Positions 5,706 to 61,485 of a stretch of 64,000 bases of DNA are shown here, in pieces. The DNA is from Candidatus Nanosyncoccus sp. (GTDB lineage: Bacteria; Patescibacteriota; Saccharimonadia; Saccharimonadales; Saccharimonadaceae). The stretch is taken from NCBI GenBank assembly GCA_045578525.1, contig JAZNKL010000006.1:3419-67418 (forward strand), written 5' to 3'. Below the pieces are notes generated by a model, which was not told the DNA's origin, ran no database searches, and saw only the letters and a program-made list of their open reading frames with translations. How positions within the stretch are numbered: the stretch's first letter is position 1; each line of letters starts with the position of its first letter. A program made the position numbers and the translations under genes.

Positions 5706-6840
5706 CACCGCCTAGGCAGACATCTCCATCATAGAACACCACGGATTGACCGCTGGCTGGAGTTTTGATTTCGTTTTCAAATATGACCTTGCTGCCTTTT
5801 AATTTTGCCGGAATAAGCGGGGCGCGATGGCGAAGACGCACCTTTATATCAGTACCTGGGGTTTCCCTTGTAAAAATATCTTTTAAATTAAGTTTCTTAG
5901 TCCAAAGATTGTCGTTGTTGAGATTTTGAGAAACGTAAACAATGTTTTTTGCGATATCTTTTTTCACGACATAATATGGAATGCCACCGCCAACCCTTAG
6001 ACCCTTGCGCTGGCCAATGGTATAAAATATCGCACCTTCGTGTACCCCAACGACCTTTTCGGTATCAATATCACGAATCTCGCCTGGTTGAGTTTTGAGG
6101 TATTTTTTGAGAAAATCTTTCATGCCAACTTCACCGACAAAACAAACTCCCATAGACTCTTTTTTGTAGGCATTATCAAGTCCGTGCTCCGCGGCTAGCT
6201 TCTTCACGTCGGCTTTTAACATCTCGCCGATTGGGAAAATGGTATGCTTTAAAGCTTCCTCTGAAATGCGATAAAGAAAGTAGGTTTGGTCCTTATTCTC
6301 ATCTACGGCACGAAGAAGCTTAGCTCGGGATCCTGCCGCGCCATCTTCCCCCCGCCTTGCGCTTTGGCGCTCGGCGGGGGCGCCCCCAAGGCGCGTCACC
6401 CCTCGCCCGACTCTAGCATAATGTCCTGTCGCGATGTAGTCTGCACCTTTTTCGCGTGCAACATCGTAAAACAATTTAAACTTGATTTCTTGGTTGCACA
6501 TGATGTCAGGATTAGGAGTGTTTCCCTTTTCAAACTCCTCGAGCATATAGTCGACCACTTTCTGACGGTACTCTGTTTCAAAATCAAACACTTCAAAATC
6601 AATGCCAAGTTTCACGGCAACGCGCTTGGCGTCTGCCAAGTCTTCGGCCCATGGGCATTTCATACCAGGAAGATCCTCGGACCAGTTTTTCATGTAGACG
6701 CCCACTACGTGGTAGCCCTGCTCTTTCAATAGAATGGCAGAGACGGAGGAATCGACACCGCCGGACATGCCAAGGTAGACAGTTTTAGCTCGAGGTTCTG
6801 CTTTAGCTCTGGGTTCTGCCTTAGCTCTGGGTTCTGGCAT
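5692..6840 (-). CDS. mnmA: tRNA-specific 2-thiouridylase MnmA
   Basis: SGGVDS, TPNPDIMCN, ATGHYAR, KDQTYFL, GQRKGL, GQSVVFY; start taken as ATG 6840. Confidence 0.95.
   Translation of the reverse strand: MPEPRAKAEPRAKAEPRAKTVYLGMSGGVDSSVSAILLKEQGYHVVGVYMKNWSEDLPGMKCPWAEDLADAKRVAVKLGIDFEVFDFETEYRQKVVDYMLEEFEKGNTPNPDIMCNQEIKFKLFYDVAREKGADYIATGHYARVGRGVTRLGGAPAERQSARRGEDGAAGSRAKLLRAVDENKDQTYFLYRISEEALKHTIFPIGEMLKADVKKLAAEHGLDNAYKKESMGVCFVGEVGMKDFLKKYLKTQPGEIRDIDTEKVVGVHEGAIFYTIGQRKGLRVGGGIPYYVVKKDIAKNIVYVSQNLNNDNLWTKKLNLKDIFTRETPGTDIKVRLRHRAPLIPAKLKGSKVIFENEIKTPASGQSVVFYDGDVCLGGGIII
6323..6399 (-). repeat. GC-rich palindromic in-frame insertion in mnmA (RPE-like copy 1)
   Basis: Hairpin CCCCCGCC-GA-GCGC-CAAA-GCGC-AA-GGCGGGGG; 53/77 nt ungapped identity to 60779-60855. 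Confidence 0.8.
6785..6838 (-). repeat. 18-bp tandem repeat x3 (EPRAKA) at the iscS/mnmA overlap
   Basis: ttagctcgaggttctgct / ttagctctgggttctgcc / ttagctctgggttctggc. Confidence 0.9.
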
Positions 6841-8077
6841 ATTCCTCCTCAACGGCTTCACGGATTAATCTACCAGCTTCTTTGACGTTTTCCTCGGTGT
6901 TCAGTACACCTAAGGAAATACGGAGCGAACCGGCGATTTCTGCATCAGATAGCTTAATAGCCTTCAAAACGTGTGAGACAGTTCCCTTGTTAGCCGAGCA
7001 AGCAGCGCCCGTAGAGAGATAGACCTGTTTTTCTTCCAGCTTGTAAATTAGGCGTTCAGCATCAATTCCTGGGAAGCTAACTGGACAAAAGTTAGCCAAC
7101 TGATGTTTGGAGTTGCCGAGAAAAATCGGCTCTATAGCTTTACATTTTTTGAGCTCGACCCTTAAAATGCTTGAAAGTTCTTGGTATTTTTTGTAATTGC
7201 TCTTGATATGTGCTTTTGCCTCTTCGGCCGCCTCGGCAAAGCCAATCACCGCTGGGACGTTTTCGGTGCCAGAGCGAAGCCCGGCTTCTTGTCCGCCGCC
7301 ATAGATGATAGGGCTAAGTTTTACGTCATGGTCAGCATAGAGCGCACCGACACCTTTCGGCCCGCCGATTTTAGCGGAATTGATAGTGAGAAGATTCACC
7401 CCCAGTCTATAGACGGAAATATCGATTAGATTCAATGCTTGCGAAGCATCGGAGTGAAGGAAAAGCGGTAAAGGAGCGTCGTCTTTAGTGTTGGAGCTTT
7501 TTAGATGCGCCTGCAGACGCTGATCGCGCTCGTCTCTGATGATTTCTGCGATTTCCGCAAGCGGCTGAATGGTGCCAAGCTCGTTGTTAGCTAGAGAAAT
7601 CGAAACAAATACCGTATTTTTATTTAATTTTTTACGAAAATCCTTGAGGTCGATCAGACCAGTTTTGTCAACATTTATTTCCGTCAGTTTAGCATCGGAG
7701 ATTTCTGCATAGTGCTTGGCAGCGGCTCTGACCGAAGCGTGCTCAGTCTCCAAAATCAGAATCTCTGGAGCGTCTGTTTTTGGGATATTCAAAGCTGAAG
7801 GGTTCAAAACTGAAGGGTTCGAAACTGGGAGGTTTAAAACAGCGGTGAAAGCCAGATTGATGCTTTCGGTAGCGCCAGCGGTAATGATAAGGTCAGCGCC
7901 TTTAGCACCAACGGTGTGGGCGATACGGTTTTTGGCGAACTCGTAATTATCACGCACGTGCTTGGCGGGAAGATAAGGGGCGGAAGGGTTGAAAAACTGT
8001 GCAGAAAAATAATCACGCATGGCAATTTCTGCCTTGCGACTAACTGGGGTAGCAGCGGCGTGATCAAGATAAATCAT
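6821..8077 (-). CDS. iscS: Cysteine desulfurase (IscS/NifS family)
   Basis: YLDHAAATP, EHASV, NNELG, HSDASQ, SAKIGGPKG, STGAACS. Confidence 0.93.
   Translation of the reverse strand: MIYLDHAAATPVSRKAEIAMRDYFSAQFFNPSAPYLPAKHVRDNYEFAKNRIAHTVGAKGADLIITAGATESINLAFTAVLNLPVSNPSVLNPSALNIPKTDAPEILILETEHASVRAAAKHYAEISDAKLTEINVDKTGLIDLKDFRKKLNKNTVFVSISLANNELGTIQPLAEIAEIIRDERDQRLQAHLKSSNTKDDAPLPLFLHSDASQALNLIDISVYRLGVNLLTINSAKIGGPKGVGALYADHDVKLSPIIYGGGQEAGLRSGTENVPAVIGFAEAAEEAKAHIKSNYKKYQELSSILRVELKKCKAIEPIFLGNSKHQLANFCPVSFPGIDAERLIYKLEEKQVYLSTGAACSANKGTVSHVLKAIKLSDAEIAGSLRISLGVLNTEENVKEAGRLIREAVEEEYARTQS
7788..7843 (-). repeat. 15-bp tandem repeat (~3.5 units) in-frame in iscS
   Basis: ttcaaagctgaaggg / ttcaaaactgaaggg / ttcgaaactgggagg; protein VLNLP-VSNPS-VLNPS-ALNIP. 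Confidence 0.8.
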
Positions 8078-8095
8078 GCTGATATTATACCATTA

Positions 8096-8154
8096 TTGAC
8101 TTTTTATATCAAGTGTGGTATAATAAAGATATAGCCTCGGTTGGGGCGTTTTTT
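8096..8154 (+). promoter_or_regulatory. Consensus sigma70 promoter followed directly by hairpin and U-tract
   Basis: TTGACT(8096)-17-TATAAT(8119), GCCTC-GGTT-GGGGC, GTTTTTT. Confidence 0.6.
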
Positions 8155-8210
8155 AGTGCTTTTCCCACGATTTTACACACAAATAAAAACTTTATGTTAA
8201 AATAGAAAGT

Positions 8211-8335
8211 GGAACATCTTTGATATATTATCGCAAGGAAATTTTTATCTTGTCCATAATAGGCGCTACTAGGCCCCTCGGCGAGATATTCCTTGTGAAT
8301 ATTTCAAAGATGTTCCATCCTAGCAGCGCCTTTTT
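8211..8335 (+). promoter_or_regulatory. Interleaved inverted repeats in the leader of the FISUMP adhesin gene (candidate switch)
   Basis: 8211-8240 pairs with 8289-8316; 8261-8273 pairs with 8319-8331 followed by Ts; TGTTAAAAT extended -10 at 8195-8203. Confidence 0.55.
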
Positions 8336-8383
8336 GTAAGTCACCTCTACAAAGAGGCCTGCTAGCTAAGAACTAGGAGGTAT

Positions 8384-10282
8384 ATGACAAACAAGAGAAT
8401 CGGGGATATAAATATATTTAGGCAGCGAGCTAGGCACTTCAATACCGTTGGGCTTTTGGTGCTTAGCAGTATGATTGGGCTTCTTGCTCTTGGATTAGGA
8501 GTTTTTAGCAACTCCGTCTTTGCTGAATCGTCCGCTAATGGTTCAACCACCGCCACTTCCCGTGTTGCAGTTACCCTTAAAGAAATCATTGCTCTTCGTA
8601 TCCTAGACAAAACCGCTAGTTCAGAAATATCTAACCTAGTACTTGATATTACTCCTACCCCTAATGGTGTGTTTACTAAGGGGTCTTTTATTGCCGAGAC
8701 GTCTACCTCTAATGCTACCGGCTACAAATTATACCTTACTAGTATCGGAAAAGATCACCTTGATACTTATACCAATTCACTGATTAATATCGATAGTAGT
8801 GTTGAGCCTAGTGTCGGGACTATTCCGAGCTTGACATCTGGCGCTTCCGTGACGGAGGCGGCATTTAGAGTAAACAACTCCGCTTATAAGAATAAATGGG
8901 GGTATAGCACTAATGGGCTAATTGTAAATACTACTACTAATAATGGTGCTACTACTATTGATTCTATTGCTGACAATACCAATACTAGCGAGATTACTTA
9001 TGCTGATATTCCAGAGAACGCAGAAAGTAGGCAGATAGATAATAAGTCGGCAGCTATTGATAAAGGGATTACGCCTATTACAATCGGAGTCAATGCTTCC
9101 TCAGCAGTGACATCTGGGGTTTACAAGAACACTTTGGAGCTCACGGCGATTGCGAACCCACTTTCGGTAGATTATTCTCTCTCCTTTGACGGCAACTCTA
9201 CTGGCACGGTGACGGGACTTCCAACTACGATGGAAGCTTCTTCTGTAGCGTCTTCTTATACATTTACTATTCCAAGTAATGTGCCAACTACTTCTGGCTA
9301 TACGTTTAAGGAATGGAATACCACAGCTGATGGCTCTGGTGATAGCTATAGTCCTGGAGATGATTTTACCGTATCGGCTGATGATATTGCGGGGACAGAC
9401 CAGGTGCTTTATGCTATTTGGATGCCGGTGCCAGCGTTCTTTACCATTACCTACATGCAAGATATGACGTCAGAGATTTGTAATTCAGCCACCACTCCGG
9501 ATGTAACCGTATTGGGAGACGAGACCAGGGCGGATACTGACGGTTCCCACAATGGCGACACCAATTATGTTCCAGAGACCACTCTCATAGACTACCGTGG
9601 CATTAACGGTACTGGTACAGCTTCTAGCCCGGCTACTGGCACTAACCAAGTTTCCTACAAGGTGAGAAAGCTAGCTGATGGTAACTGCTGGATGACCCAG
9701 AACCTGAAGTTGACGCTCTCTACCTCCACTACGTTAGAAGTTGGTACCTTTACTGGTGGTACTACTTCTTGGACACCAAATAGTACTACTGAAGCATACG
9801 TATACAACTACGCTATCACGCCAAGTACTAAAGCCGACCTCAGCGTCAATACGGACATTGATGCTAAGAACGGTGGCAATGCCTGGTATTATCCATGGTA
9901 TGCAGCAACGGCAGGACAAGGCACTCAAACCACTAGCCCAAACATCACCCAATCTATCTGCCCTAAGGGCTGGAGGCTACCATTAGGAACTACGGCAGAT
10001 AAGTCATTCTATAACCTCTTCACCACTAAATACGGCCTAGAAAGCTCTGCTGCTGGCTCTACTTCCTTACAAAGCTTCCCACTAGACTTTACTCTGTCCG
10101 GATACGTGGATAACGGGTCGCAGCTCGGTGCGGGTTCATACGGCTACTACTGGTCAGCCAGTCCGGACACTAGCCGTCCTGGCAGCGCGTACAACTTGTA
10201 CTTCCGCTCTGACATCATTGCCTCTCAGAACTACTACAGCGCCAAGTACTACGGTCGCTCGGTGCGTTGCGTATCAGTCTAG
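8384..10282 (+). CDS. Surface adhesin: signal peptide, WxL-like subunit domain, InlB B-repeat (Flg_new), FISUMP/Fib_succ_major tip
   Basis: TSTSNATGYKLYL..KWGY..GVYKNTLELTA; GYTFKEWNTTADGSG..LYAIW; KLADGNCWMTQNL, CPKGWRLP, YYWS, GRSVRCV. Confidence 0.85.
   Translation: MTNKRIGDINIFRQRARHFNTVGLLVLSSMIGLLALGLGVFSNSVFAESSANGSTTATSRVAVTLKEIIALRILDKTASSEISNLVLDITPTPNGVFTKGSFIAETSTSNATGYKLYLTSIGKDHLDTYTNSLINIDSSVEPSVGTIPSLTSGASVTEAAFRVNNSAYKNKWGYSTNGLIVNTTTNNGATTIDSIADNTNTSEITYADIPENAESRQIDNKSAAIDKGITPITIGVNASSAVTSGVYKNTLELTAIANPLSVDYSLSFDGNSTGTVTGLPTTMEASSVASSYTFTIPSNVPTTSGYTFKEWNTTADGSGDSYSPGDDFTVSADDIAGTDQVLYAIWMPVPAFFTITYMQDMTSEICNSATTPDVTVLGDETRADTDGSHNGDTNYVPETTLIDYRGINGTGTASSPATGTNQVSYKVRKLADGNCWMTQNLKLTLSTSTTLEVGTFTGGTTSWTPNSTTEAYVYNYAITPSTKADLSVNTDIDAKNGGNAWYYPWYAATAGQGTQTTSPNITQSICPKGWRLPLGTTADKSFYNLFTTKYGLESSAAGSTSLQSFPLDFTLSGYVDNGSQLGAGSYGYYWSASPDTSRPGSAYNLYFRSDIIASQNYYSAKYYGRSVRCVSV
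10100..10282 (+). other. Candidate DGR variable region (VR)
   Basis: 104/183 nt GC; 30/60 sense codons end in C; all 10 Tyr are TAC and all 3 Asn are AAC; lies at the extreme C-terminus of a CLec-type domain. Confidence 0.55.
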
Positions 10283-10334
10283 TTCTCTCCGTGGTGTTTT
10301 CCCGTGTCCTCCCAAAAAAGGGAGAGAACATCAC
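10282..10334 (+). promoter_or_regulatory. Hairpin immediately after the adhesin stop (terminator and/or DGR cis-hairpin)
   Basis: GTTCTCTCC(10282-90)/GGAGAGAAC(10321-29); alternative arm GTGGTGTTTTC; inner CTCCC-AAAAAA-GGGAG. Confidence 0.5.
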
Positions 10335-10377
10335 GCTCACGCTTGAGTAGCCTATAATTATGTGCTACGGTGATAAC

Positions 10378-10782
10378 ATGAAGAAAAAATATACCGTAAT
10401 TACAGAGACTAGCGCAAATAATCCTCCGCAAGATTTTGAGATGCGAGCCGCAATAATTCTGGCAAATTACTTAAAGAAAGATTTAGTGTTCCAACGCTCT
10501 GGACATTGTCGTACTCCGGATCTGAGAGAAAAAGACTCCACGATAACCTGGGAATTAAAAAGCCCTACTGGTGATGGAAAGAAAACTATAGACAATAATT
10601 TGCGTTCTGCAAAAGGCCAATCAAAAAGAGTAGTGCTGGATCTATCTCGATGTAAAATGCACCAGCTTAGAGTAATTGGTCGTATAAAGCACTACGTAAA
10701 AGCGGGCAATCACCAAATCAAAAGATTGCTTATTATCACAAAATCTAAACGAGTCATTGACTTTTTAAAAGAAATAAAGTAA
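10378..10782 (+). CDS. Stand-alone CdiA C-terminal-like (PD-(D/E)XK fold) nuclease domain protein
   Basis: RTPDL..WELKSPTG..KTIDNNLRSAKGQSKRVVLDL. Confidence 0.6.
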   Translation: MKKKYTVITETSANNPPQDFEMRAAIILANYLKKDLVFQRSGHCRTPDLREKDSTITWELKSPTGDGKKTIDNNLRSAKGQSKRVVLDLSRCKMHQLRVIGRIKHYVKAGNHQIKRLLIITKSKRVIDFLKEIK

Positions 10783-10797
10783 TATAGAATCATAGAT

Positions 10798-10845
10798 AAG
10801 ATGCGTAAGATACTGTACTGAATCAAACGCATCTTTTCTTTTTTG
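10798..10845. terminator. Bidirectional hairpin/terminator between convergent genes (possible sRNA)
   Basis: AAGATGCGT..ACGCATCTT followed by TTCTTTTTT. Confidence 0.65.
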
Positions 10846-10847
10846 TC

Positions 10848-11303
10848 TTAGTACAACTTCGTCTTAATCAGCTTCAAATACTCGGTAGCGGCTTTGCAGA
10901 AATTTTCTAGCTCGCGACCTTTGATTTTGATATATTCGCCGCCTAGTGGCAACTTATAGACGCCGTTTTCACGGACTTCATAAGTAATAGTAGATTCAAA
11001 CTTCTTGCCGTCTTCTATCCAGCTTTCGTGATAAATCCAGACATTGTGCTTAAAGCGGAAGAATTCGCGGCGATGGCCTTTTGGAATCGGACCAAAAAGA
11101 GTTGCGCCAAGAGCAGATTCGGCATTGATTAAATCTGATTCAGTCAGTTTTAGTTTAGTGTTTTTCCCTGCACTAAAAAGCGACTTGATGATATTTTTGT
11201 AGTTTTTCTTGCTCTTTTCCTTCGGCTTTACGGCTGGTTTTTTGGCAGCCTTTTTTACTTTTGGTGTAGCTTTTCTTTTTAGCGCAAATGACTTTGGCGA
11301 CAT
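10848..11303 (-). CDS. Hypothetical protein with Lys-rich N-terminus
   Basis: AGGAGGT SD; 151-aa ORF. Confidence 0.75.
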   Translation of the reverse strand: MSPKSFALKRKATPKVKKAAKKPAVKPKEKSKKNYKNIIKSLFSAGKNTKLKLTESDLINAESALGATLFGPIPKGHRREFFRFKHNVWIYHESWIEDGKKFESTITYEVRENGVYKLPLGGEYIKIKGRELENFCKAATEYLKLIKTKLY

Positions 11304-11435
11304 CTTTCCACCTCCTCAGAAATTCTACTTAGCTCGTGATAAAGCTCAAGATCAGGAGAATCAAAAGCATAGGCCTCAGCTTTTTTGAAGCTTGGCATAC
11401 CAAAACGGGGTGCAAAATCTGGGTTCTCTACCCCT

Positions 11436-12359
11436 TTAATGTGTGAGTTTGAATAAATTTCTCGCATTTTCTGTGGTTCTCCCTTCGATTTCCGCTTCTG
11501 GAATGCCCAGAGTGTCGGAAATATAGGCGCAAATGTCTCTCACATGCGCCGGCTCATTTATTGTACCACGAAATGGCGCTGGTGTCAAGAAGGGGGCATC
11601 AGTTTCTAGGAGCATTCTCTCTAGTGGCGGGAGCGGAAGCTCTGGTTTTACAAAAGTTGCAAGACCATTTACACCGATAAAGAAGCCGAAATTTAGAGAT
11701 TTTTTGAGGTTTTCTGGACTATCGGAGAAGGAATGAACTACCCCTTTTACTTCTGGGAAATTCTTAACCACAGCGAAGAAATCATCAAAAGCATCACGGA
11801 CATGGAAAATCAGAGGCAAATTCTGGTCTTTTGCCAGCTGTAGCATCTCTTCAAAGAGCTTTATCTGGTTGTTTTTCCCTGCCACGCCTTCCCGTGGTGC
11901 ACCTTCACGGTAATCAAGGCCCACCTCGCCGATAGCAACTAAAGTGGGCGAGTCAAACATCTCTCTCGCGACACGCTCGGCTCGGCCCGTCGTTACGGGC
12001 GAGCCTTCGCTCCGCCCGCTCCCCGTTGGTCGCGGAGGGTCGCTATGAGAGATATCTTGACTCGCCCATCTGTCTGCCTCGTCGGGGTGGATGCCGTAAG
12101 ACCAAAAAACGCCGTCAGAAGCGTGAGAAGCTGCAAAATCGTGAGCAATTAAAGAATCTTCGTGCGAAGTGCCCACGCAAATCATCTGAGAGATACCAGC
12201 AGAGTGAGCACGCTCAATAATCTTTGACGGCTCAAAATCTGCCGGAAGATGCGGAACTTCTGGGTGTTTCTTTAAATATTTCTCGGAAAGTTGCTGGCGC
12301 GACAAAGCAAAATTATAAGTATCTCGATCGTGAATATGGCAGTGTGTATCAATTAACAC
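11436..12359 (-). CDS. tatD: TatD family DNase
   Basis: IDTHCH, GIHP, AIGEVGLDY, FHVRDA, HSF, LETDAPFL; GTG start overlapping the typA stop inferred. Confidence 0.9.
   Translation of the reverse strand: MLIDTHCHIHDRDTYNFALSRQQLSEKYLKKHPEVPHLPADFEPSKIIERAHSAGISQMICVGTSHEDSLIAHDFAASHASDGVFWSYGIHPDEADRWASQDISHSDPPRPTGSGRSEGSPVTTGRAERVAREMFDSPTLVAIGEVGLDYREGAPREGVAGKNNQIKLFEEMLQLAKDQNLPLIFHVRDAFDDFFAVVKNFPEVKGVVHSFSDSPENLKKSLNFGFFIGVNGLATFVKPELPLPPLERMLLETDAPFLTPAPFRGTINEPAHVRDICAYISDTLGIPEAEIEGRTTENARNLFKLTH
11946..12067. repeat. 122-bp palindromic MITE/RPE-like element in-frame within tatD
   Basis: Terminal IR GGGCGAGTCAA..ATCTCTC / GAGAGAT..TTGACTCGCCC; inner GGCTC-G-GCCCGT-CGTT-ACGGGC-GAGCC. 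Confidence 0.8.
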
Positions 12360-14166: not shown

Positions 14167-14229
14167 AAGAATTAATTATACACTTTTTAGAGGTAAAAGT
14201 AAAGCCCCTAGCATAGAGGGGCTTTTTGC

Positions 14230-14898
14230 TCACTTTCTGCGAGCAGGTCTTTTGGCGGGGGTGGAGAGCATCAGTCCGGCGAACGCTAGATCGTCGTTCG
14301 TGAAAACGCGTTGCGGTGACATATTCCAGTAGACATAGACATCTTCGTCAATCTTCAGACTATCGGCTACGTCAAGAAAGCTCGGTTTAACAGTGGCAGC
14401 AATCTCTGATAGTAGTATTTCGACCGCATTATCTTCGATGGTTCCAGCTATTCCAGACGAGGTTTCTGAAACCGCCGCATTTCCGCCGCTAATAAGCTGA
14501 CGACAAAGTAGAGAAACTGTTCCTCCGGGCTTTGTGGCCGAAATCGCGAAAGTGTTATGACGACTTCCTTTATAATCAAAATCGCTGAATTTTCCGACGG
14601 CAAATTCGACGCCTTTACCACTAAATTCACTAGGAATCTTCATTTCTGTCAACCGGTTGTAATACTCTAAAAAATCATCAAGCGGATGAAAGAAGCTTTC
14701 GAATTCTGCCGGGATTGCATTACTGACGTTATTTGTGACGTAGTCTATCGGAATAAAAACATTGAGACTTTTGGGATAAATCGCACTAAACTCATTAGCG
14801 AAAAAGCCATTTGAACCTAAAGCCGTGATTTTCATATCTATTCCTGCCGGAAAAACCTGACGTGCAAGACTCTCTGCCCCCAAAGCAAACTTAGTCAT
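14230..14898 (-). CDS. Hypothetical protein
   Basis: AGGAGGTGA SD; own promoter and terminator. Confidence 0.75.
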   Translation of the reverse strand: MTKFALGAESLARQVFPAGIDMKITALGSNGFFANEFSAIYPKSLNVFIPIDYVTNNVSNAIPAEFESFFHPLDDFLEYYNRLTEMKIPSEFSGKGVEFAVGKFSDFDYKGSRHNTFAISATKPGGTVSLLCRQLISGGNAAVSETSSGIAGTIEDNAVEILLSEIAATVKPSFLDVADSLKIDEDVYVYWNMSPQRVFTNDDLAFAGLMLSTPAKRPARRK

Positions 14899-14988
14899 AT
14901 CCTCACCTCCTAATGTACAATGTTCTTATATTGTACCATAAAAAACCTCTAATTAAAGAGGCTTTTTATGATTGCGTTTAACTTTTTG

Positions 14989-15603: not shown

Positions 15604-15617
15604 TTTGACTCCTTTAA

Positions 15618-16508: not shown

Positions 16509-16530
16509 TTTACGTGGCCTTAACTTTTAT

Positions 16531-45420: not shown

Positions 45421-45421
45421 T

Positions 45422-50947: not shown

Positions 50948-50989
50948 TTGCAATAAAATGAGACCACTAGGGTCTCTTTTTATACAACT

Positions 50990-51064: not shown

Positions 51065-51197
51065 ATAAGAACCTGTTGTATATGGTATATTATACACCCT
51101 GGTTCCGAATCTTGCAAGGATTTTCCGTTTCTTCATGAAAGAGTAATCTGATTATTACTCAAGAAAAAGGGCGCACTAAAGCGCCCAAGGCCAAATA

Positions 51198-51434: not shown

Positions 51435-51559
51435 AATAACACCTCCTTACAATAGAAATATAAAATTGGTTTTCGGGTAACTATATTATACCATAAAATT
51501 AAAAAACACACAAGTATTAAAATAAGGCCAGTTATCTGGCCTTATTTTGTCCAGCGATT

Positions 51560-52624: not shown

Positions 52625-52645
52625 ATAATTATTATCCTTCCTTTA

Positions 52646-52723
52646 GGCCCGTTCAAAGAAATTCTTGTAGTCTCCTATTTTTATGTCTTATGATCACACT
52701 ACAAAAATAGCTTTGAACGAGCC
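52646..52723 (-). promoter_or_regulatory. Structured 5' leader of rpsA
   Basis: 13-bp outer stem GGCTCGTTCAAAG/CTTTGAACGGGCC with competing inner stems. Confidence 0.6.
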
Positions 52724-52736
52724 CAAGATGCACTAA

Positions 52737-55625
52737 TTATAGCACGGTTTTTAGATACTGTCCAGTTGGAGTCTTGGCATCTTTGGCCAAATTTTCTGGT
52801 GTTCCCTCCGCAATAACTGTACCGCCATTTGCACCGCCTTCTGGCCCCATATCAATAATCCAGTCAGCAGATTTAATAACATGAAGATTGTGTTCAATAA
52901 TAATCATCGAGTTGCCACCATCAACTAGCTTATTTAAGATGCTGAGAAGTTTTTTAACGTCTGCTGTGTGTAAACCAGTAGTTGGCTCGTCAAGAATATA
53001 GAGCGTTTTACCAGTGCTTCTACGTGAAAGCTCAGTTGCTAGTTTAATGCGTTGCGCCTCTCCACCGGAAAAAGTGGTAGCTGGTTGACCTAACCTGATA
53101 TAGCCAAGACCCACTTCTTGAATGGTTTTTAGTTTTGGAGCAATTGATGGAATGTTCTCAAAAAACTCTACCGCTTCATCGATAGTCATATCTAGTACGT
53201 CGGCAATACTCTTGCCTTTATATTTGATTTCTAGAGCCTCGCGATTATAGCGTTTGCCGTGACAGGCAGGACAGGTCACATAAACATCCGGCAAAAAATG
53301 CATTTCAATTTTGTTAACGCCATCACCCTGGCAAGTTTCGCATCTACCACCACGAATGTTGAAAGAAAACCTGCCGGCTTTATAGCCACGTATTTCGGCT
53401 TCTGGTTGGTGCGCAAATAGTTCACGAATCTGATTAAACACACCAGTATAAGTTGCAGGGTTTGAACGTGGTGTACGGCCGATTGGTGACTGGTCAATTA
53501 CGATGCATTTATCGAGGTACTCTATGCCCTCAATCTTTTCGTGAGCTCCTGGAACGGTTTGTGCGCGATGAAGGCGAGCGAGCAGTTCATTTGCCAAAAT
53601 ATCATTTACGAGCGTAGATTTTCCAGAGCCGGAAACGCCAGAAACTACAGTCATTACGCCAAGCGGGAATTTAACATTAATATTTTTAAGATTATTTTCA
53701 CGAGCACCGATCACTTCAAGGTATTCTGGACTACGGTTGGTGTCGGTCTTTACTGTGCGGCGGCGTTTTGGAGTTTCAATCTTTAGTTCTCCTGACAAAT
53801 ACTTGCCAGTAATGGAACTCTTGTTTTTCATTATTTCTTCTGGCGTCCCACATGCTACAACCTGACCGCCATTGACGCCAGCGCCTGGTCCAATATCTAC
53901 AATATAGTCAGAACTAAGCATGGTGTCTTCATCATGTTCAACAACAAGAACGGTATTTTTTAGATCCCTTAAGTGTTTTAGAGTGGCAATCAATTTGTCA
54001 TTATCACGTTGGTGAAGTCCAATCGATGGTTCATCAAGAACGTATAAAACGCCTTGTAGGCCAGAGCCAATTTGCGTAGCGAGACGAATACGTTGAGCTT
54101 CGCCACCACTCAAAGTATTGGCCGCACGCCCAAGTTCAAGATAACCTAGGCCAACATCCTGCATGAATTTCACGCGCTCTCTAATTTCCTTTAGAATCGG
54201 ATCAGCAATTTGGTGTTCTGCTTCAGTGAATTCTAGGTCTTTATCTAGAACTTCTAGCGTAGTATCAACATCCATATTGCACATATCAACAATGTTCAAA
54301 TTATGGATTGTCACCGCGAGTACCACAGGCTTAAGCCTTGCACCGTGGCAAGTCTGACACTCTTTTAATCTCATAAATCGTTCAATATCTTTTCTAATAA
54401 AGTCAGAGTCAGTCTCACGATGTCTTCGTTCCAAAGTCGGAATTACGCCTTCGTAGGTAGATTCGTAAACTGTGCCTTCAGAAAATTTTCCTGTACCTGC
54501 GATTCTTACCTTGTATTTTTCCGAGCCTGTGCCGTAAAGAATTTTATGTCTTGCGTCTTCCGACAATTCACGGATTGGCGTATGAATACTAAATCCCTGT
54601 TTCTTACCCACCGCGTCAAGGCGTTTTAGCCACCATGAATCTTGGCTCACGCGATTGAATGGGCGAATACCACCCTCAGCGATAGTAAGATTTTCATTAA
54701 AGACTAGGCTTGGGTCAATTTCCATACGTGTACCAAGTCCAGTACACGTTGGACAAGCGCCTTGTGGAGCATTAAAAGAAAAGAGTCTTGGCTCGAGTTC
54801 TGGAATGAGTTCGTCAGGATGATTTGGACAAGCGTAACGCTGAGAGAAAGTAATAATATTAGTATTTTCATCAGTGATAGTCTTATTGTCAACGGCAGTA
54901 GAATTATCCGTAATTTTAAGAAGATTAATAATTCCCTGTCCGAGTTCTAATGCTTGCTCAATTGAGCTAGCAATACGTGCCCTCAAATCTAGGCTCAAGA
55001 TGAAACGATCCACTACGATTTCAATATCATGGCGTTCTTGTTTCTCTAGTTCCGGGAATTCGTCTAATGCATAAATGATTCCATCTACACGCACGCGCGA
55101 AAAACCTTTGGCGAGATATTGCTCGGAAACGTGCTGAAACTCCCCTTTCTTTTGCTGGACGATTGGAGCGAGTAACATGAGTTTTGAGCCAAGTGGCAAT
55201 TTCATTACTTCGTTTACAATATCTTCAGTAGTGCGCCTTGAGACTTCACTGTGGCAAATTGGACAATGTGGAACGCCAACTCGTGCAAAAAGAAGCCTTA
55301 GATAGTCAAATACTTCTGTGACCGTAGCGACAGTGGAACGAGGATTTCTGCTAGTAGATTTTTGATCGATAGAAATAGCGGGGCTTAAACCAGTGATCGT
55401 ATCAACATCTGGCTTGTCCATTACGCCAAGGAACATTCTGGCATATGAACTTAGAGATTCTACATATCTTCTCTGGCCTTCCGCATAAATCGTATCAAAA
55501 GCTAAACTTGATTTTCCAGAACCAGAAAGTCCGGTTAAAACTACAAGCTTGTCACGGGGGATATCGACATCTATATTTTTTAGATTGTGCTGTCTAGCAC
55601 CACGTATTTTAATCGCATTTTCCAT
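52737..55625 (-). CDS. uvrA: Excinuclease UvrA
   Basis: Two ABC ATPase domains ([24 protein letters not shown]) and zinc fingers. Confidence 0.97.
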
Positions 55626-55673
55626 AATTAGCGGTTATATATTATATATGAAAAACATTAAAAAGTCTAGAGG

Positions 55674-55799
55674 CTAGAGATTGCCTTTAGTTCGCATTTC
55701 ATAGACAAGACGCTCCTGATCATGATTTGAGGCGTCAGTTTTACCAGCTATTTCACCAAATTCGGACTTCTGCCCTGCAGATTCATATGTTTCATTCAT
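55674..55799 (-). CDS. 41-aa small ORF (below the ORF track cutoff)
   Basis: AAGGAG SD; [41 protein letters not shown]. Confidence 0.45.
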
Positions 55800-55811
55800 T
55801 TTTTCTCCTTT

Positions 55812-57335
55812 TTAATAATCATTGGGCTGAAGGTTTTGATACCAAAGCATTAGCTCCTCTAGAATGTATGGATCAATTTTTTGTCCATATTCTGTAGCGT
55901 CATAACCAGCATCGAGCCTCGCTTGTAAGCCTTCCATTTCTTTTTGGAAATTTGGCAGCTGACGGTTTAAACGATTCAATCGATATTCCTCCCATTTTTT
56001 TGTCTCTGTTTCAGAAAGACTAGTTGGATAATTTTTCGCCTTATAATGAAGAAGTAAATCCGGCAAACGTTCGTCGCTAAAATCTGGATGAAAGTCAGCA
56101 AGGCGATTTGCGTCTGCATTCCTCACGGCATTGCACTTCACACTATCTTGCTCGGAAAGAAATCCGTCATAAAGAGCAGATTCTGGGTCAACTGGCTCTT
56201 TGTATTCTGGACGGTTTTCGTATTTTTCACGCATCATTTCAGCAAACTCTGGATGAGCAAGTAAGCTCCCTAAGTTCTTGTCAATTTGTTCTTTCGTAAG
56301 CTCGACGTGTTCCCAACCGGTCTTATTATCTGATATACCATCTAAAACCCCAATTGGGGCAACCGCCGGACATTTGTTTAGGCTTAATTCTTTTACGATT
56401 GGATAAAATGATTTCGCTTGTGGTTCATTTGATTTTACTTGTGCTAAATTTGAATTCGTTTGTGGTTTATTTGATTCCGATTGTGCTAAATTTGATTCTT
56501 CTTGCGCTAATAAATCATCTAAATTGTAACGCAAGTCAAACACGAGGACGTTTCCATTCCTACCAGCCGTAAGTGGAAATGCTACCGTAGTTTTGTTATA
56601 TTTACCTGGATATCGACCGCAAGCATATACAAACGGTCTTTTATCGTCCAAATTAACCAGCTTAGCCACTTCGCGTTTATCGCGCATTTTGAAAAGATAT
56701 TCATATAGTTTTGGTTGATGTTTTTTGATAAGTTTTGTTACTTCTATGAGTGCAAAAACATCAGCTAGCGCATCGTGAGCATGGGTATGTTCTATACCGT
56801 TTAGTTTTGTTAGCAACTCGAGACGGTTCGTTGCCACTGTCACAGTTTTTTTCTCGCCGGTTTCCCTGTCTGCCACTTCTATTTCTTGAGTTGGCCAATT
56901 AATTCCCTCTGGTCTCAGAGCACGCGTCAGCCTAACCACGTCTAGAAGATCCCAGCGACTGCGACCATCTTTCCATTGCCAAGTGTATGGATCGTAAAAA
57001 TTTCTCCACAGACAATGGCGCATGAATTCATCATCAAAGCGCACAGAATTATAACCAACAGCACAAGTATCGTCTGTAAATAATTCTTCAGTTACATATT
57101 TGCAGAACTCAGCTTCACTCAGACCATCGGACAAAGTATCTTGTGGGGTGATTTTAGTAACTAAAATCGCACCAGGGCTTGGGAGTGTATCGTCTGACAT
57201 TTTTACTAACAAATTAATTGGCTCGCCAATTGGTTCTAGATTCATGTCGGTTCTTTGACCAGCAAACTGCATAATGCGGTCTTCGCACGGACTCAAACCA
57301 GACGTTTCTAAATCGTAGAAAAAGAATGATTTCAT
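55812..57335 (-). CDS. sbcB: Exodeoxyribonuclease I
   Basis: YDLETSG, QFAGQRTD, GYNSVRFDDE, HAHDALADV. Confidence 0.93.
   Translation of the reverse strand: MKSFFFYDLETSGLSPCEDRIMQFAGQRTDMNLEPIGEPINLLVKMSDDTLPSPGAILVTKITPQDTLSDGLSEAEFCKYVTEELFTDDTCAVGYNSVRFDDEFMRHCLWRNFYDPYTWQWKDGRSRWDLLDVVRLTRALRPEGINWPTQEIEVADRETGEKKTVTVATNRLELLTKLNGIEHTHAHDALADVFALIEVTKLIKKHQPKLYEYLFKMRDKREVAKLVNLDDKRPFVYACGRYPGKYNKTTVAFPLTAGRNGNVLVFDLRYNLDDLLAQEESNLAQSESNKPQTNSNLAQVKSNEPQAKSFYPIVKELSLNKCPAVAPIGVLDGISDNKTGWEHVELTKEQIDKNLGSLLAHPEFAEMMREKYENRPEYKEPVDPESALYDGFLSEQDSVKCNAVRNADANRLADFHPDFSDERLPDLLLHYKAKNYPTSLSETETKKWEEYRLNRLNRQLPNFQKEMEGLQARLDAGYDATEYGQKIDPYILEELMLWYQNLQPNDY
56418..56510 (-). repeat. 42-bp tandem duplication in-frame in sbcB
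   Basis: SNLAQSESNKPQTN / SNLAQVKSNEPQAK. Confidence 0.85.
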
Positions 57336-57449
57336 AGTGTAATTATAGCATACTCTATTTTTAAACTTAATATGCTTACCTAGGCCCAGATGAAGTTTGT
57401 GGCATTTATTATTTACATGAAAAACCCCGCGAAACTCGCGGGGTTTTAC

Positions 57450-58016
57450 TTATTTTGCTGTTGGGAAGTCGATAATCTTATCGGCCTCCCTTGCGCCTTC
57501 ATTGATGTCCTCTGCCGTGAGAGTCCTAAGAGGGACTATTTCCTCGATAGGATTATCTCCATCGGAAACCTCCCACGCTGCAAGGAGTTTATCAACGTCT
57601 GTTTCCAGACTGTCGCGGTACTCCTTGCGCAGTTTTTTCTCACGTTCTATCTCATAGCGCTCGCGCGCTTTGACGAACGTAATTTCAGAAGTAAAGGCAG
57701 ATATGTAATGCAGTCCATAAAACAGGGCCACGTGCACCGTAACGATAAATAAAAATGACATCACGTACGGCGCCTCTGTCTTTAGACGGAAGAGCGGCAT
57801 CATCATTTCAGCAATCATGATGAAGCCCGCCATGAGAAAAATTGGAAAGACGGACAGTGTTATTATAAACGCGATCGCGTCAAACGCAACCTGTTTATAA
57901 TTCAATCTTGGCCTTCCATCTGCCGTTTTCGTCATATTCTTGCTGGCAAGCCAACCAAGAAAAACAGAAGAAACGATCACGGCAATGACCCATGCTACGA
58001 AATAATAATTCTTCAT
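57450..58016 (-). CDS. Membrane hypothetical protein (3 TM)
   Basis: Own TTGACT-17-TATAAT promoter (58119-58091) with 5' hairpin; CCCCGCG/CGCGGGG terminator. Confidence 0.75.
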   Translation of the reverse strand: MKNYYFVAWVIAVIVSSVFLGWLASKNMTKTADGRPRLNYKQVAFDAIAFIITLSVFPIFLMAGFIMIAEMMMPLFRLKTEAPYVMSFLFIVTVHVALFYGLHYISAFTSEITFVKARERYEIEREKKLRKEYRDSLETDVDKLLAAWEVSDGDNPIEEIVPLRTLTAEDINEGAREADKIIDFPTAK

Positions 58017-58206
58017 ATTTACACCCCCCGAGCTTTTTGCTCTATAAATACTCTGTTACTAGCCATCCCATTACGATGGCTCATATATACATTATATCAC
58101 AGAACATCAAAATAGTCAATAGTTGCTCATGCTTATTTCCAGCGGTGAAATAGAAAATAACAGAGGTAAACATATTTGATGTATTATACGATATTCTAGT
58201 AACAGA

Positions 58207-58938
58207 TTATTCGGTTACGGAAGTTCCGCTACCAGTGGTAGAAGCATTTTTGTAGGAAGAACTATTATAATAAGCCTGTACTAACTCACCATAGATATTT
58301 TCTAGATCATTATTCAGCTCAAATAATTTGTCATCAGTAACTGGCATAATTACAAATTTAAGAGGCGAATTGGTAGCGCCACATATTTCCCTACTCTCAC
58401 CGTAAGCAAGTTCACCAGGGATAGCAATTTCACGAACCCCGCCGACTTTCATACCAACTACGCCTTCATTCCAGCCTTCGATTAAGCCTTGTCCAGCGTA
58501 AATTGGAGTATTAAGCGATGTCGGATTATCTTTGTCATTGAAGGTCGAATCAAAGATAGTCTCGTCTGGACACCAACCAATATAGTAAGCAAAATAATTA
58601 AGGTCCCCAGTAGCAAGCTCTCTACCGTCACCTTCTTTAAGGTCAGTCTTTTTGACGCCTGAGTTATTAACTGCTTCAGCATTATAAGCTTTGACTTCCG
58701 AACGGAAGCTATTCATGGTATCAAAATATTTATCAGACATTGTCTTACCGTATTCGTTGATTTCTACTTGTTTTGCAGTGTAATCATCTTGTAACTTAGA
58801 TAATTTAGCATCACCGGAGTTACTACTTGATAAAACAATCAGAATATATGTGGCAATAGTTGAGCCAAGAAGAAGAATAGCGATTATAGTAATCACAATG
58901 CGTTGCTTGGTGCTAGTTTTTAATGCGTTTTGATCCAT
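58207..58938 (-). CDS. FKBP-type peptidyl-prolyl isomerase, membrane-anchored
   Basis: IFDST, LIEGWNEGVVGMKVGGVREIAIPGELAYG. Confidence 0.9.
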   Translation of the reverse strand: MDQNALKTSTKQRIVITIIAILLLGSTIATYILIVLSSSNSGDAKLSKLQDDYTAKQVEINEYGKTMSDKYFDTMNSFRSEVKAYNAEAVNNSGVKKTDLKEGDGRELATGDLNYFAYYIGWCPDETIFDSTFNDKDNPTSLNTPIYAGQGLIEGWNEGVVGMKVGGVREIAIPGELAYGESREICGATNSPLKFVIMPVTDDKLFELNNDLENIYGELVQAYYNSSSYKNASTTGSGTSVTE

Positions 58939-58965
58939 ATTTACCTCCTTATTTAATAAAAATGC

Positions 58966-61485
58966 CTAGACGATTTCGGCGCCCACTTCTTTTTTAACAT
59001 TTTTCTCTACTTCTTCCATTATATCAGAGATCTCCGTATTCTCTAAGGTTTTCTTCATACTTCCAAATTCCAAATGGAAAGAAATGTTACGAGTCGTTGC
59101 ACCCTCTTCTGCTTTGTAAATTGACACTGGCGCAATATTCGTTATCAGCTCGCCGACGGCAGAGCTGCCATTACCATAAGCTGCAAAAGATTTAGCAATA
59201 GCGTCTTCTATCTTAGCAAAAGCGACATCAGTATTTACCTTAAACGTAATATCCCGTTCAACTGATGGGAATCTCGATAGTGCAGGCATCTTTACAGCTG
59301 TTGCTGGGAGCTCTTTAATCAGTCCGTCCAAGTTGATTTCGTAGGCAGCAATCGGTTGGTTAATTTTGAAACGTTTTAAGATGCTTGATTTTATCTCGCC
59401 ACAGCAAACGTGTGGAGTCTGAATCGTGGCAGAGCGAACTGATTCAAAATATGGAAAATGTCCATCATATTGATGGAAAGCCAAATCCCTAAAGCCAAGT
59501 TCAGAAAGTAGCGCCACAAGATTTGCTTTCATCGTGTAATAATCTCCAGTTGTGACAAAAGCAAGATGAGTGTAGAGTACTGGAACTTTATCATCATCGA
59601 GCTTGTAAGATTTCTTGGTGACTTGGTTAATTTCATAAACGGAGAAGTCACGGTATCCAGATTTCAAATTATCGCGCATCTTTTCGAGAAGTGACGGGAT
59701 AATACTTTGGCGGAAACATTGAAGTTCTGGAGAAATACTATTTACGATCTCGTAAGAATCGTGAGGATCTTCTCCGACGTCGCTTTGTAACTTTTTACTG
59801 ACAAAAGAATATGTAAGCAACTCGTGCGAGTCTAATTTATCCGATAGAATACTCCTTAATTTAGATTTGAGCTCAAGCATAGCATCCTCTTTTGCGCCAA
59901 TGAATGGCCGGACTGGATAGTCAATCGGGATATTATCATAGCCAAGTAAGCGTCCGACTTCTTCAATAATATCTTCTTCAATATGTAAATCAGTGCGCCA
60001 AAGTGGTGCTGTAACTCTAATACTGATTGCTGGACTATCATCACGAGCAACCTCGACTTTGAGGCCGACATTTTCGAGGGTATTTTTTACTGTAGACAAA
60101 TCATAGTTGGTGCCAAGTAATGAGTTAATTGCACGAATAGACGTATCGATAACTGATGGTCTCACTGGTTCCGGATATTCATCGGCAATCTCAGTTACAT
60201 CACCACTAAGCATCTCGCAGGCCGTCTTGAGAACTGATGCAGTTTGTTCAGCTGGTTGGCCTTTAGTGAAACGAGTAATAGCTTCTGAGAAAATTCCATG
60301 GGCCATCTGAGTTTTGCGTAAATGATAAAGTGAAAAAGTAGCTGATTCAAGGATGACTCTAGTCGTTGACTCATCAATCTCTGTATTCTTTCCACCCATA
60401 GCACCAGCAAGAGCAACCGGAACATTGTTGGAAGTGATGAGAATATCATTTTCGTTACACTTGATAGTCTTTCCGTCGAGAAGTTGCAATTCTTCCCCTT
60501 CTTTCGCAGCACGGACGATTATTGTTGGCTTGTCACTTCCGCCAGTCTTTAGAAACTTGTCATAATCAAATGCGTGCAAAGGCTGACCAGTCATCAGCAT
60601 CAAGTAGTTTGTGATATCAACAATTTTGGAAATACCATGCATACCTGCTTTTGCTAGAAAAACGTCCATTGGGGTTAAAAATCTATCATCAGAAAGGGCA
60701 TCTTTCATTTCGAGCACAGCACAAGAATAGCGTGGACAAAGATTTTGATCTTTGATCTCAATAGAAATTGACTTCGTTGCTGAGGACTCTGCTATATCAT
60801 CTTCCCAAACCTTTGTGCCCTGTTGTTCGACTGGGGCGCCTCCAAGGCGTGTCACTGATTTCGCGTTTTCTTCGTCAAATTTCTCACCGAGAATACCAGC
60901 AACTTCGCGAGCAAAACCAATTAGTCCAAATGTGTCTGGACGATGAGTGAGAGACTTATTCTCAATGTCAAGAATAATGTCATTTAAATCAAAAACCTCT
61001 GCAAAACTGTCTCCTGGCTGAATTTCTCTGGAGCCATCTGGGTATTTTTGATGAGGGTCAATTTCTACTATTCCAGAATGGTCGTCGCCAAGTGCTAATT
61101 CGTCTAGCCCTGCGAGCATGCCATGGGACTCAAAACCACGAAGTTTCCTGACGTCTAATTTGAAGTTCTCTTCGCCAAAAGTTTGCGGAACGATTGCTCC
61201 CGGAGCAAGCCAAACAGCGAACATACCAGCACGTACATTTGGTGCACCACAAACGACTTGAACTAAACCGTCTTTTGTTTCTATTTGGCATAAATGAAGA
61301 TGTGTTTCTGGAATCGCTTCACAAGATGCGACTTTGACGATGTATGCTCCCTGGTACTTTTCTGACCAGTTGATTTTCTCTTCAACTTCTACTAAACGTG
61401 AGCCAATTAATTTAACCAACTCGTCTGGTGATACTTCGGCAGCTTTGGGTACTAGTTTTTTGATTTCGTTTAGACTAATTCTCAT
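58966..61485 (-). CDS. pheT: Phenylalanyl-tRNA synthetase beta subunit
   Basis: VVCGAPN, SLTHRPD, GQPLHAFD, ESATF, FPSVERDI. Confidence 0.96.
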   Translation of the reverse strand: MRISLNEIKKLVPKAAEVSPDELVKLIGSRLVEVEEKINWSEKYQGAYIVKVASCEAIPETHLHLCQIETKDGLVQVVCGAPNVRAGMFAVWLAPGAIVPQTFGEENFKLDVRKLRGFESHGMLAGLDELALGDDHSGIVEIDPHQKYPDGSREIQPGDSFAEVFDLNDIILDIENKSLTHRPDTFGLIGFAREVAGILGEKFDEENAKSVTRLGGAPVEQQGTKVWEDDIAESSATKSISIEIKDQNLCPRYSCAVLEMKDALSDDRFLTPMDVFLAKAGMHGISKIVDITNYLMLMTGQPLHAFDYDKFLKTGGSDKPTIIVRAAKEGEELQLLDGKTIKCNENDILITSNNVPVALAGAMGGKNTEIDESTTRVILESATFSLYHLRKTQMAHGIFSEAITRFTKGQPAEQTASVLKTACEMLSGDVTEIADEYPEPVRPSVIDTSIRAINSLLGTNYDLSTVKNTLENVGLKVEVARDDSPAISIRVTAPLWRTDLHIEEDIIEEVGRLLGYDNIPIDYPVRPFIGAKEDAMLELKSKLRSILSDKLDSHELLTYSFVSKKLQSDVGEDPHDSYEIVNSISPELQCFRQSIIPSLLEKMRDNLKSGYRDFSVYEINQVTKKSYKLDDDKVPVLYTHLAFVTTGDYYTMKANLVALLSELGFRDLAFHQYDGHFPYFESVRSATIQTPHVCCGEIKSSILKRFKINQPIAAYEINLDGLIKELPATAVKMPALSRFPSVERDITFKVNTDVAFAKIEDAIAKSFAAYGNGSSAVGELITNIAPVSIYKAEEGATTRNISFHLEFGSMKKTLENTEISDIMEEVEKNVKKEVGAEIV
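60779..60855 (-). repeat. Decayed palindromic in-frame insertion in pheT (RPE-like copy 2)
   Basis: VTRLGGAPVEQQGTKVWEDDIAESSA; 53/77 nt identity to the mnmA copy. Confidence 0.8.

Follow-up and report, generated by a model that had tools for sequence, protein, structure and literature searches.

Probable copies of a hairpin-forming mobile DNA element inserted in frame in mnmA and pheT of a Candidatus Nanosyncoccus genome

Two GC-rich segments lying in frame within the unrelated genes mnmA and pheT were analysed in a 64,000-nucleotide stretch of contig JAZNKL010000006.1 (the window) of a Candidatus Nanosyncoccus sp. genome (G000; 745 kb, 9 contigs, 41% GC, 99.5% complete). Both segments are very probably copies of a mobile DNA element that is non-autonomous, GC-rich and hairpin-forming, that has spread within the genus, and whose end module recurs in elements from other parts of the phylum. 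The family itself, its structure, its in-frame insertions, its empty orthologous sites and its strand polarity are demonstrated by the comparisons below. Insertions would persist only where they are harmless, in short intergenic spacers or in frame in permissive protein loops, and within genes the element would be read through as a low-complexity segment of 26-33 residues rich in Gly, Pro, Arg and Glu. Its spread may proceed through a folded single strand of DNA or RNA, strand-specifically and possibly coupled to replication, with a mobilising enzyme presumably supplied in trans. The two G000 copies are inherited relics, that in MnmA fairly recent and that in PheT older and AT-eroded, and nothing in G000 points to current activity.

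On the minus strand, window positions 6323-6399 (mnmA) and 60779-60855 (pheT) were identical at 53 of 77 nucleotides without gaps and in the same reading frame, and the two stretches encode VTRLGGAPAERQSARRGEDGAAGSR(A) in MnmA and VTRLGGAPVEQQGTKVWEDDIAESS(A) in PheT. This match, with its shared orientation and frame, had been claimed in an earlier note made from the sequence of the window, and it was confirmed by realignment and by a genome-wide sliding scan. When the mnmA 77-mer was slid along 1,489,522 positions of G000 on both strands, the pheT site gave 53 matches and the runner-up 39, with a mean of 17.4 and a standard deviation of 3.8 (z = 9.4 for the pheT site). Because the pheT site scored 53 against a genome-wide runner-up of 39, the match is not due to chance. 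The GC-to-AT direction of change described in the same note was also recovered, as 19 of the 24 differences were G/C in mnmA and A/T in pheT; GC content was 77% in the mnmA copy and 56% in the pheT copy. The mnmA copy folded at -52.3 kcal/mol, and the pheT copy folded no better than shuffles (z = +0.68). The strong mnmA hairpin of the earlier note stood as to this energy and as to its fit with the family consensus, but its z of only -2.1 against GC-matched shuffles did not carry the claim by itself. The agreement with the family consensus structure is therefore stronger evidence for this hairpin than its folding energy.

The mnmA copy was compared with related genes and with models of the family. 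In a codon alignment with the empty-site orthologue P0003, 87 nucleotides in G000 replace 9 nucleotides. Two covariance models contained no G000 sequences, R1 with 36 copies and R2 with 29 subtype-B copies. R1 matched positions 6317-6411 with 46.9 bits (E = 2.8e-8 genome-wide), and R2 matched 6315-6412 with 53.5 bits; within the window, a model of this kind gave E = 6e-11 for the mnmA copy. The MnmA orthologues P0002 and P0003 (343 aa, 79% identical) read GHYARV-NGK/DDK-KLLRA with no insert, and G000 and its 94% relative P0001 have 29 residues where these two have three. At the 5' end of the mnmA open reading frame (ORF; window ~6760-6840), three tandem EPRAKA units (MKPLRRNMPEPRAKAEPRAKAEPRAK) run from a GTG start and precede the conserved MnmA start. 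This stretch overlaps the end of an upstream cysteine-desulfurase-like ORF (6821-8077), and the true mnmA start codon is uncertain.

In an alignment of 120 orthologues, the MnmA site flanked by GHYAR and LLRAVDENKDQTYFL proved to be a hot spot for insertions across Saccharibacteria. Just 3-4 residues stand there in the shortest forms (339-343 aa), and the longest form reaches 442 aa. Many orthologues carry varied inserts at this position, among them the present element in either orientation (opposite-orientation copies in G188, P0050, P0088 and P0090), and other GC-rich peptide families also occupy it. Additional insert types in other Saccharibacteria, such as ...SRPSPRGERANSRAAALRN... and ...PRPSGPSPRAAGA.SRAAALRN..., were seen at the same site (GHYAR^LLRAVDENK, window ~6320-6410). 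This variety points to additional families of elements and to a hot spot for insertions in general. An AlphaFold2 model of MnmA gave a mean predicted local distance difference test score (pLDDT) of 85.5 and a predicted template modelling score of 0.81. The sole internal stretch with pLDDT below 50 was residues 155-176, between strands 150-152 and 181-183, and the matching place in PDB 2hma is a short hairpin, ARDEDGTVHML. The insert, which the earlier note had proposed to map onto predicted structures, is thus the only internal low-confidence stretch between two beta-strands and is predicted to sit in a loop at the tip of a beta-hairpin.

The pheT copy lies in a linker between GILGxKFxE and LCPRYSCAV whose length, in 120 orthologues, ranges from about 10 to about 60 residues. 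The segment is present in the 98% relative P0121. The relatives P0123 and P0124 (80-82% identity) are 21 residues shorter at the site, and the 88% relative P0122 has a partial copy, which lacks the first 10 residues and retains CGCGGTAGAATCCCAGGC. This remnant is nearer to the 3' end of the element (CGCGGCAGGATCCCGAGC in mnmA) than the G000 pheT copy is. Because of this distribution (full at 98%, partial at 88%, absent at 80-82%), the pheT insertion is older than the mnmA insertion, and its greater age is in keeping with the loss of its fold and with decay biased towards AT. The older, decaying pheT copy of the earlier note fits both the 19 GC-to-AT differences and this wider sharing among relatives. 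In both genes the segments were absent from close orthologues, namely MnmA relatives at 79% and PheT relatives at 80-82% identity.

A chance or convergent similarity between two GC-rich low-complexity coding sequences, with no common origin, is very improbable. This view draws on the weak signal of the pheT copy, which was not significant by the family models (nothing with R1, 8.6 bits with R2, nhmmer E = 8.8), a result that also counts against treating the copy as a family member, and on BLAST, where just a 23-nt core was reported (E = 0.064). Against chance, besides the sliding scan, the pheT site ranked second in the whole of G000 by nhmmer, in the correct register, and the copy keeps the subtype-B hallmark motifs GTGAC.CGCCTTGG.GG and GGGAAGATG...GCAG..TCC. 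Moreover, its segment is an insertion relative to the 80-82% orthologues, and the 88% orthologue keeps an element-like 3' end. Membership of the pheT copy in the family is accordingly based on the pairwise match with mnmA, the subtype-B motifs and the orthologue comparison. The host genes and the two copies are listed in Table 1.

Table 1. Host genes and element copies in the window
Feature	Positions	Strand	Description
mnmA host gene (tRNA 2-thiouridine synthase)	5692..6861	-	389-codon ORF; PF03054, PF20258, PF20259; PDB 2hma E 2e-95
Well-preserved element copy in mnmA	6322..6408	-	87-nt in-frame insert encoding GRGVTRLGGAPAERQSARRGEDGAAGSRA; subtype B (TTGGGGG...GGGGGAAGATG)
pheT host gene (phenylalanyl-tRNA synthetase beta subunit)	58966..61485	-	839-codon ORF; PF03483, PF03484, PF17759, PF01588, PF03147
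Decayed element copy in pheT	60779..60855	-	In frame, hypervariable linker before B3_4 domain; encodes VTRLGGAPVEQQGTKVWEDDIAESSA

The distribution of the family was determined in related genomes. An initial DNA search with the mnmA copy against 40 relatives gave significant matches in other genomes of the genus, within YchF, a penicillin-binding protein (PBP), IleRS and Obg. No third copy was found in G000 by blastn, fuzzy core search, peptide search or both covariance models, yet the further copies looked for by the earlier note were abundant elsewhere: among 369 genomes of the genus, a subtype-A copy matched 114 (E up to 0.01) and a subtype-B copy matched 84 (E up to 1e-5). In five high-copy genomes (G060, G189, G342, G108 and G176; 0.7-0.9 Mb), R1 identified 123 copies in total, with 21-27 per genome.

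Beyond the genus, 150 genomes representing about 120 other genera of the order were searched with R1; weak matches (29-40 bits) appeared in 6 of them, and these matches fall in six other families. The distant elements keep the arrangement N-CGGGTGAC-stem ... stem-GGCAGGACCCG-N, and their interiors are unrelated and sometimes AT-rich. Of 401 genomes sampled across the phylum, 10 contained the exact pattern GGGTGAC-N55-85-GGCAGGACCC, and all 10 belong to classes other than that of G000; the reversed control pattern matched no genome. Pattern copies from other classes have the same nested-hairpin layout, and some lie within long ORFs. The recurrence of the end module across the phylum indicates that it is the conserved part of a wider superfamily. 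One superfamily copy, in a distant Patescibacteria genome (L136, G902:C2), was located at 1492-1583, about 70 nt upstream of an RNase P RNA gene (1652-2052; RF00010, 205.6 bits).

The element is 85-100 nt long and comprises four nested helices, with 80-90 nt, most commonly 82 nt, from outer stem to outer stem. The unpaired 5' flank ACA was conserved in 47, 51 and 57 of 64 copies at its three positions, and the unpaired 3' flank GAG in 51, 45 and 43. The outer helix P1 is a 9-bp stem in which T-S-R-R-C-G-G-G-T pairs with A-C-C-C-G-Y-Y-S-A, followed inward by an asymmetric loop in which GA faces GCAGG. P2 is a 6-bp stem with free but complementary sequence. The purine-rich internal loops are UGGAGGGGG and AGGAGAAG in subtype A, and UUGGGGG and AAGAUG in subtype B. 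P3 is a C5/G5 stem with 2-4 further pairs, and it is succeeded by tandem G-A positions and a short capped hairpin.

This structure was supported by strong covariation. In the 36-copy alignment, 96.7% of the cells were paired, 11 pairs had changed on both sides, and the covariation score was 0.282; none of 500 shuffles attained these values, and slid partners paired at 35-49%. P2 had many sequences in 85 distinct copies and was almost always complementary. Furthermore, copies within one genome that have identical P2 and interior sequences differed in the outer 3-4 bp of P1, which were always complementary. In a subfamily on G060:C6 and G060:C4 (L099-L116), exemplified by the C6 minus-strand copy CGGGTGGTGTCGCC...GGCGACGACAGGACCCG, the end loop is altered on both sides, to GGT from GA (5') and to GACAGG from GGCAGG (3'). 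Changes on the two sides of this conserved asymmetric loop may be coupled. A kink-turn or a bulge-helix-bulge was considered by eye for the end loop and dropped, because either conflicts with the covarying pairs.

The insertion sites were classified in a sample of 65 copies, a few of them fetched twice from the same place, and a copy was called intragenic when an open frame held at least 30 residues on each side of it. Thirty-nine copies (about 60%) were intragenic and in frame, 28 in the sense and 11 in the antisense direction relative to the element. The other 26 were intergenic, and their flanking ORFs matched different neighbouring G000 genes with complete ends. The intragenic hosts sampled were YchF, IleRS (two sites), ArgRS (two sites), MurB, a tRNA-guanine-transglycosylase-like protein, an RluB-like pseudouridine synthase, a P-type ATPase, a PriA-like helicase, PBP, Obg and MnmA, so that in-frame copies occur in more than 10 different housekeeping genes. 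The G000 orthologue showed a clear gap at the insert for YchF, the RluB-like protein, MurB, the PriA-like protein and both IleRS sites. In this empty-site comparison, MnmA is filled in G000, Obg and PBP fell outside the comparison, and the ArgRS sites and remaining alignments were ambiguous or too divergent.

Across these hosts, the element DNA is read in antisense as well as in two sense frames, giving for example ...TGDGPGGGPPLS.SEVGEEK.RQDPS... and ...GRVTR.EG.P... in the sense direction and ...LDGSCRTFSSPTSL.LSGGPPPGPSPV... in the antisense direction. A protein-level module is excluded by the use of the same DNA in several frames and orientations. Removal at the RNA level, by an intron-like or translational-bypass process in which the fold serves excision and the proteins never carry the peptide, is highly unlikely. 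It would agree with the strong covariation, the conserved unpaired nucleotides, the phylum-wide end module and the stem-to-stem lengths, which are mostly not multiples of three (82, 80, 89 and 83 nt). However, every intragenic copy examined has an open frame into homologous protein on both sides, the YchF and MnmA inserts both being 87 nt. That the frame is kept despite non-triplet lengths suggests that the reading frame is under selection, and thus that the inserts are translated, and it speaks against removal from the RNA. None of the 65 sampled copies, the 26 outside genes included, splits a gene. Antisense copies are equally tolerated (11 of 39), which is unexpected for a signal on one RNA strand, and decayed copies such as that in pheT remain in frame after loss of the fold. 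In addition, in 12 loci compared with Rfam 15, no family overlapped the element (E up to 1). Read as a mobile DNA element, the inserts are probably translated, as judged from their intact reading frames.

Two empty hot-spot sites resemble the 5' end of the element (ATCGACGGGTGAC), namely IDGEH in the IleRS of G000:C4 (ATC GAC GGT GAG CAT) and AGG GTG GAT GAC in the MnmA of P0003 (L118). This resemblance could reflect chance, the footprint of a lost copy or a target preference. As a general rule, a target resembling the 5' end was rejected, since no resemblance was found at the YchF, MurB, RluB-like and PriA-like sites. In L085 (G342:C3), the full copy at the IleRS hot spot is preceded, 12 nt upstream, by part of an additional 5' end (GGACGGGTT), which resembles what an earlier or a nested insertion would leave behind.

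The orientation of the copies was strongly polar. Contigs with at least two copies carried 97 copies in the five high-copy genomes, and 95 of these shared the majority orientation of their contig. On two contigs of G060 (235 kb and 136 kb), 18 of 19 copies were on the minus strand; genes are mostly plus on one of these contigs and mostly minus on the other, and six copies were antisense to their host. The G-rich strand of the element lay on the locally C-rich strand in 59 of the 65 sampled copies (negative GC skew in a 3-kb flank, oriented by the element), with 27 of 28 sense, 10 of 11 antisense and 22 of 26 intergenic copies following this rule. Since the rule holds whatever the direction of the host gene, the orientation follows a chromosome-scale strand asymmetry and not transcription. 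The pheT copy of G000 is an exception to it, and the flanks of the mnmA copy are almost without skew.

This asymmetry was compared around dnaA. In G060:C4 (~124.7 kb), G189:C8 (~63 kb) and G108:C13 (~9 kb), gene orientation flips at dnaA and the sign of the GC skew is kept, so that the skew changes in size alone (e.g., +0.15 to +0.38 in G189). On G000:C9, by contrast, the sign of the skew changes with no switch in the strand of the genes. The genus departs in its GC skew from the usual two-replichore pattern.

No signal of target-site duplication was detected, as the longest shared word of the 20-nt flanks averaged 3.91 in true pairs and 3.93 in mismatched pairs (64 copies). The IleRS site has diverged flanking repeats (GAACAT ... 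GACCAT, HxEH), a pattern that does not generalise. About 510 kb of high-copy contigs was scanned for unpaired element ends, and no long autonomous version was found; the unpaired ends that did appear were set aside as chance partial matches or a variant subfamily (GGGTGGTG ... GACGACAGGACCC). The covarying fold, the unpaired nucleotides, the short flanks, the lack of duplication and the polarity together give the element a likeness to single-strand, structure-recognising systems, namely REP/RAYT (repetitive extragenic palindromes, REPs, and their transposases), IS200/IS605 and integron attC.

Several results weigh against a mobile element of this description. No enzyme that moves it was identified among the Y1 transposase and reverse-transcriptase searches. 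PF01797 (Y1 transposase) was not found in the five high-copy genomes, which are 92-98% complete, and 6 of 14 controls were positive; reverse transcriptase did not discriminate, being present in four of five high-copy and four of five zero-copy genomes. The polarity could not be linked to replication direction, or to the leading or lagging strand, because GC skew has one sign on both sides of dnaA in three contigs. Related genomes do not contribute independent copies, and the counts therefore overstate the number of insertion events. The covariation could arise from templated correction within hairpins and not from selection. The counts of G:U and A:C (53 and 17, or 24 and 17 after one fixed position was dropped) do not show which strand folds.

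Two other routes of movement were weighed against these results. According to the first, which we consider unlikely, the element would be a REP or an IS200/IS605-type unit, and a tyrosine HUH transposase (RAYT or TnpA) would move it by acting at the replication fork on DNA in single-stranded form. The lack of classical terminal inverted repeats and of target-site duplication, the structured hairpin with conserved unpaired flanks as in tagged REPs, and the strong chromosome-scale polarity would all suit such an enzyme, and REPs are known inside genes, with CGTC REPs lacking a dedicated transposase (PMC3733652). On the other hand, PF01797 was missing from the high-copy genomes although controls gave matches, the size and architecture are unlike those of REPs, the CGTC of this element is, where present, paired and variable, and a link with replication is not established, given the skew at dnaA.

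According to the second, the element would spread with no enzyme, by template switching or fold-back copying at hairpins during replication, so that complementary arms arise in one step. We regard this as having a similarly low probability. It would account for the outer 5 bp of P1, which differ among copies otherwise identical in P2 and interior and are always complementary, and it suits the lack of target-site duplication, the polar orientation and the failure to find a transposase; extra nucleotides at the 3' junction in IleRS also vary between genomes. It leaves the arrival of a core of about 72 nt at unrelated sites unexplained, however, and among the empty sites compared with G000 just two resemble the 5' end of the element, and the others do not.

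A broader form of the mobile-element reading is possible but doubtful. It would unite a Patescibacteria-wide superfamily by its folded end module (N5-GGGUGAC-stem ... stem-GGCAGGACCC-N5'), with strand-polar, single-stranded movement outside the HUH, DDE and reverse-transcriptase routes. Each insertion would then acquire new complementary outer stems, and over time the surface loops of a large fraction of the essential proteins in these ultrasmall bacteria would have been remodelled.

The element was compared with known repeat families. Rickettsia palindromic elements (RPE-1 to RPE-10) are about 100-150 bp long and move by unknown means (Ogata et al. 2000, summarised in PMC10969869). They are the nearest counterpart in behaviour, and this likeness comprises short palindromic repeats in a reduced genome, many in-frame insertions in unrelated housekeeping genes at positions compatible with the fold, and added peptide segments. 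The present element is likewise an in-frame palindrome in many genes without breakage, and its fold-compatible sites include the MnmA loop (residues 155-176; the 2hma hairpin) and the hypervariable PheT linker. The RPE-like selfish family suggested in the earlier note was supported by the many copies in congeners, the close orthologues without the segments and the behaviour at the DNA level. Unlike RPEs, the element belongs to an unrelated phylum, is 85-100 nt long and is strongly GC-rich in a 41% GC genome. It is read in several frames and both orientations, whereas each RPE family gives one conserved peptide, and it has helix covariation, chromosome-scale polarity and a phylum-shared end module. 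The absence of a published description for Saccharibacteria, also suggested earlier, was upheld in that no paper linking Saccharibacteria, Patescibacteria or the Candidate Phyla Radiation (CPR) with miniature transposable elements that have inverted repeats (MITEs), with REPs or with intragenic palindromic repeats was found in the library searched.

Tagged REPs (GTAG, CGTC) measure 20-40 bp and have one stem, typically of 8-9 bp (5-13 bp allowed), a loop of 4-5 nt, a tag at one end and a CCA tail; most lie outside genes and some inside, they often occur as dimers, and GTAG REPs are tied to RAYT genes (Di Nocera et al. 2013, PMC3733652). They share with the present element a hairpin with conserved unpaired nucleotides beside the stem and some intragenic copies. 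Membership among CGTC-tagged REPs was rejected, as the element has 85-100 nt, four helices and the unpaired flanks ACA and GAG. Its CGTC is confined to the paired outer stem and varies to CGCC, CGTT and CGCT. In contrast to REPs, about 60% of its sampled copies are intragenic, and no RAYT (PF01797) was found in the five high-copy genomes.

IS200/IS605 elements and their miniature derivatives transpose as single strands in a process coupled to replication. The present element resembles them in a seemingly structure-based recognition, the lack of target-site duplication, short conserved flanks and strand-biased orientation; by analogy, its flanks could be cleavage or target sites. It differs in being one continuous hairpin, not separate left- and right-end hairpins, and no Y1 transposase was found in the five genomes. 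Classical MITEs (Correia, ERIC, BOX; PMC10969869) are likewise small non-autonomous repeats able to create in-frame fusions. For the present element, no target-site duplication was found (64 copies), nor, in the ~510 kb of high-copy contigs scanned, a related autonomous insertion sequence, and its arms covary with no kept transposase-binding sequence. The element belongs to the "selfish palindromes in genes", of which it is a newly recognised form with a well-defined structure. We know of no described bacterial repeat family that explains the strict polarity together with copy-specific complementary outer stems. These two features may point to an unrecognised insertion mechanism, and the polarity, the coordinated stems and the phylum-wide end module set the element apart from routine repeats.

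Saccharibacteria genomes are among the smallest cellular genomes, with about 95% of the sequence in ORFs. Congeners of G000 still tolerate 21-27 copies of a selfish hairpin, many of them within essential aminoacyl-tRNA synthetases, GTPases and cell-wall enzymes. Genetics has recently become feasible in this phylum, and the element therefore lends itself to the study of its movement and of the role of the added loops. In addition, the inserts inflate or distort protein alignments, orthology calls and CPR marker phylogenies, as in MnmA (339 to 442 residues, with hot-spot inserts that differ widely in length), and the GC-rich islands are open to misreading as horizontally acquired DNA.

Other GC-rich palindromes were also observed in G000. 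A second, unrelated nested palindrome occurs at window positions 11937-12067 (G000:C6:15355-15485) and at G000:C9:64405-64540, with the core CCCGTCGTTACGGG...CCGCCCGCTCCCGTTGTCGCGGAG. Both copies are in frame in ORFs, that of the window in a TatD-like gene, and R1 weakly touches the window copy (E = 0.87). A third GC-rich palindromic pair, at G000:C9:71640-71745 and G000:C9:187090-187190, is spanned by no long ORF, and its two members lie in opposite orientations and have CGCTCGCCGCGTCCCAAGGGGCGGGAC in common.

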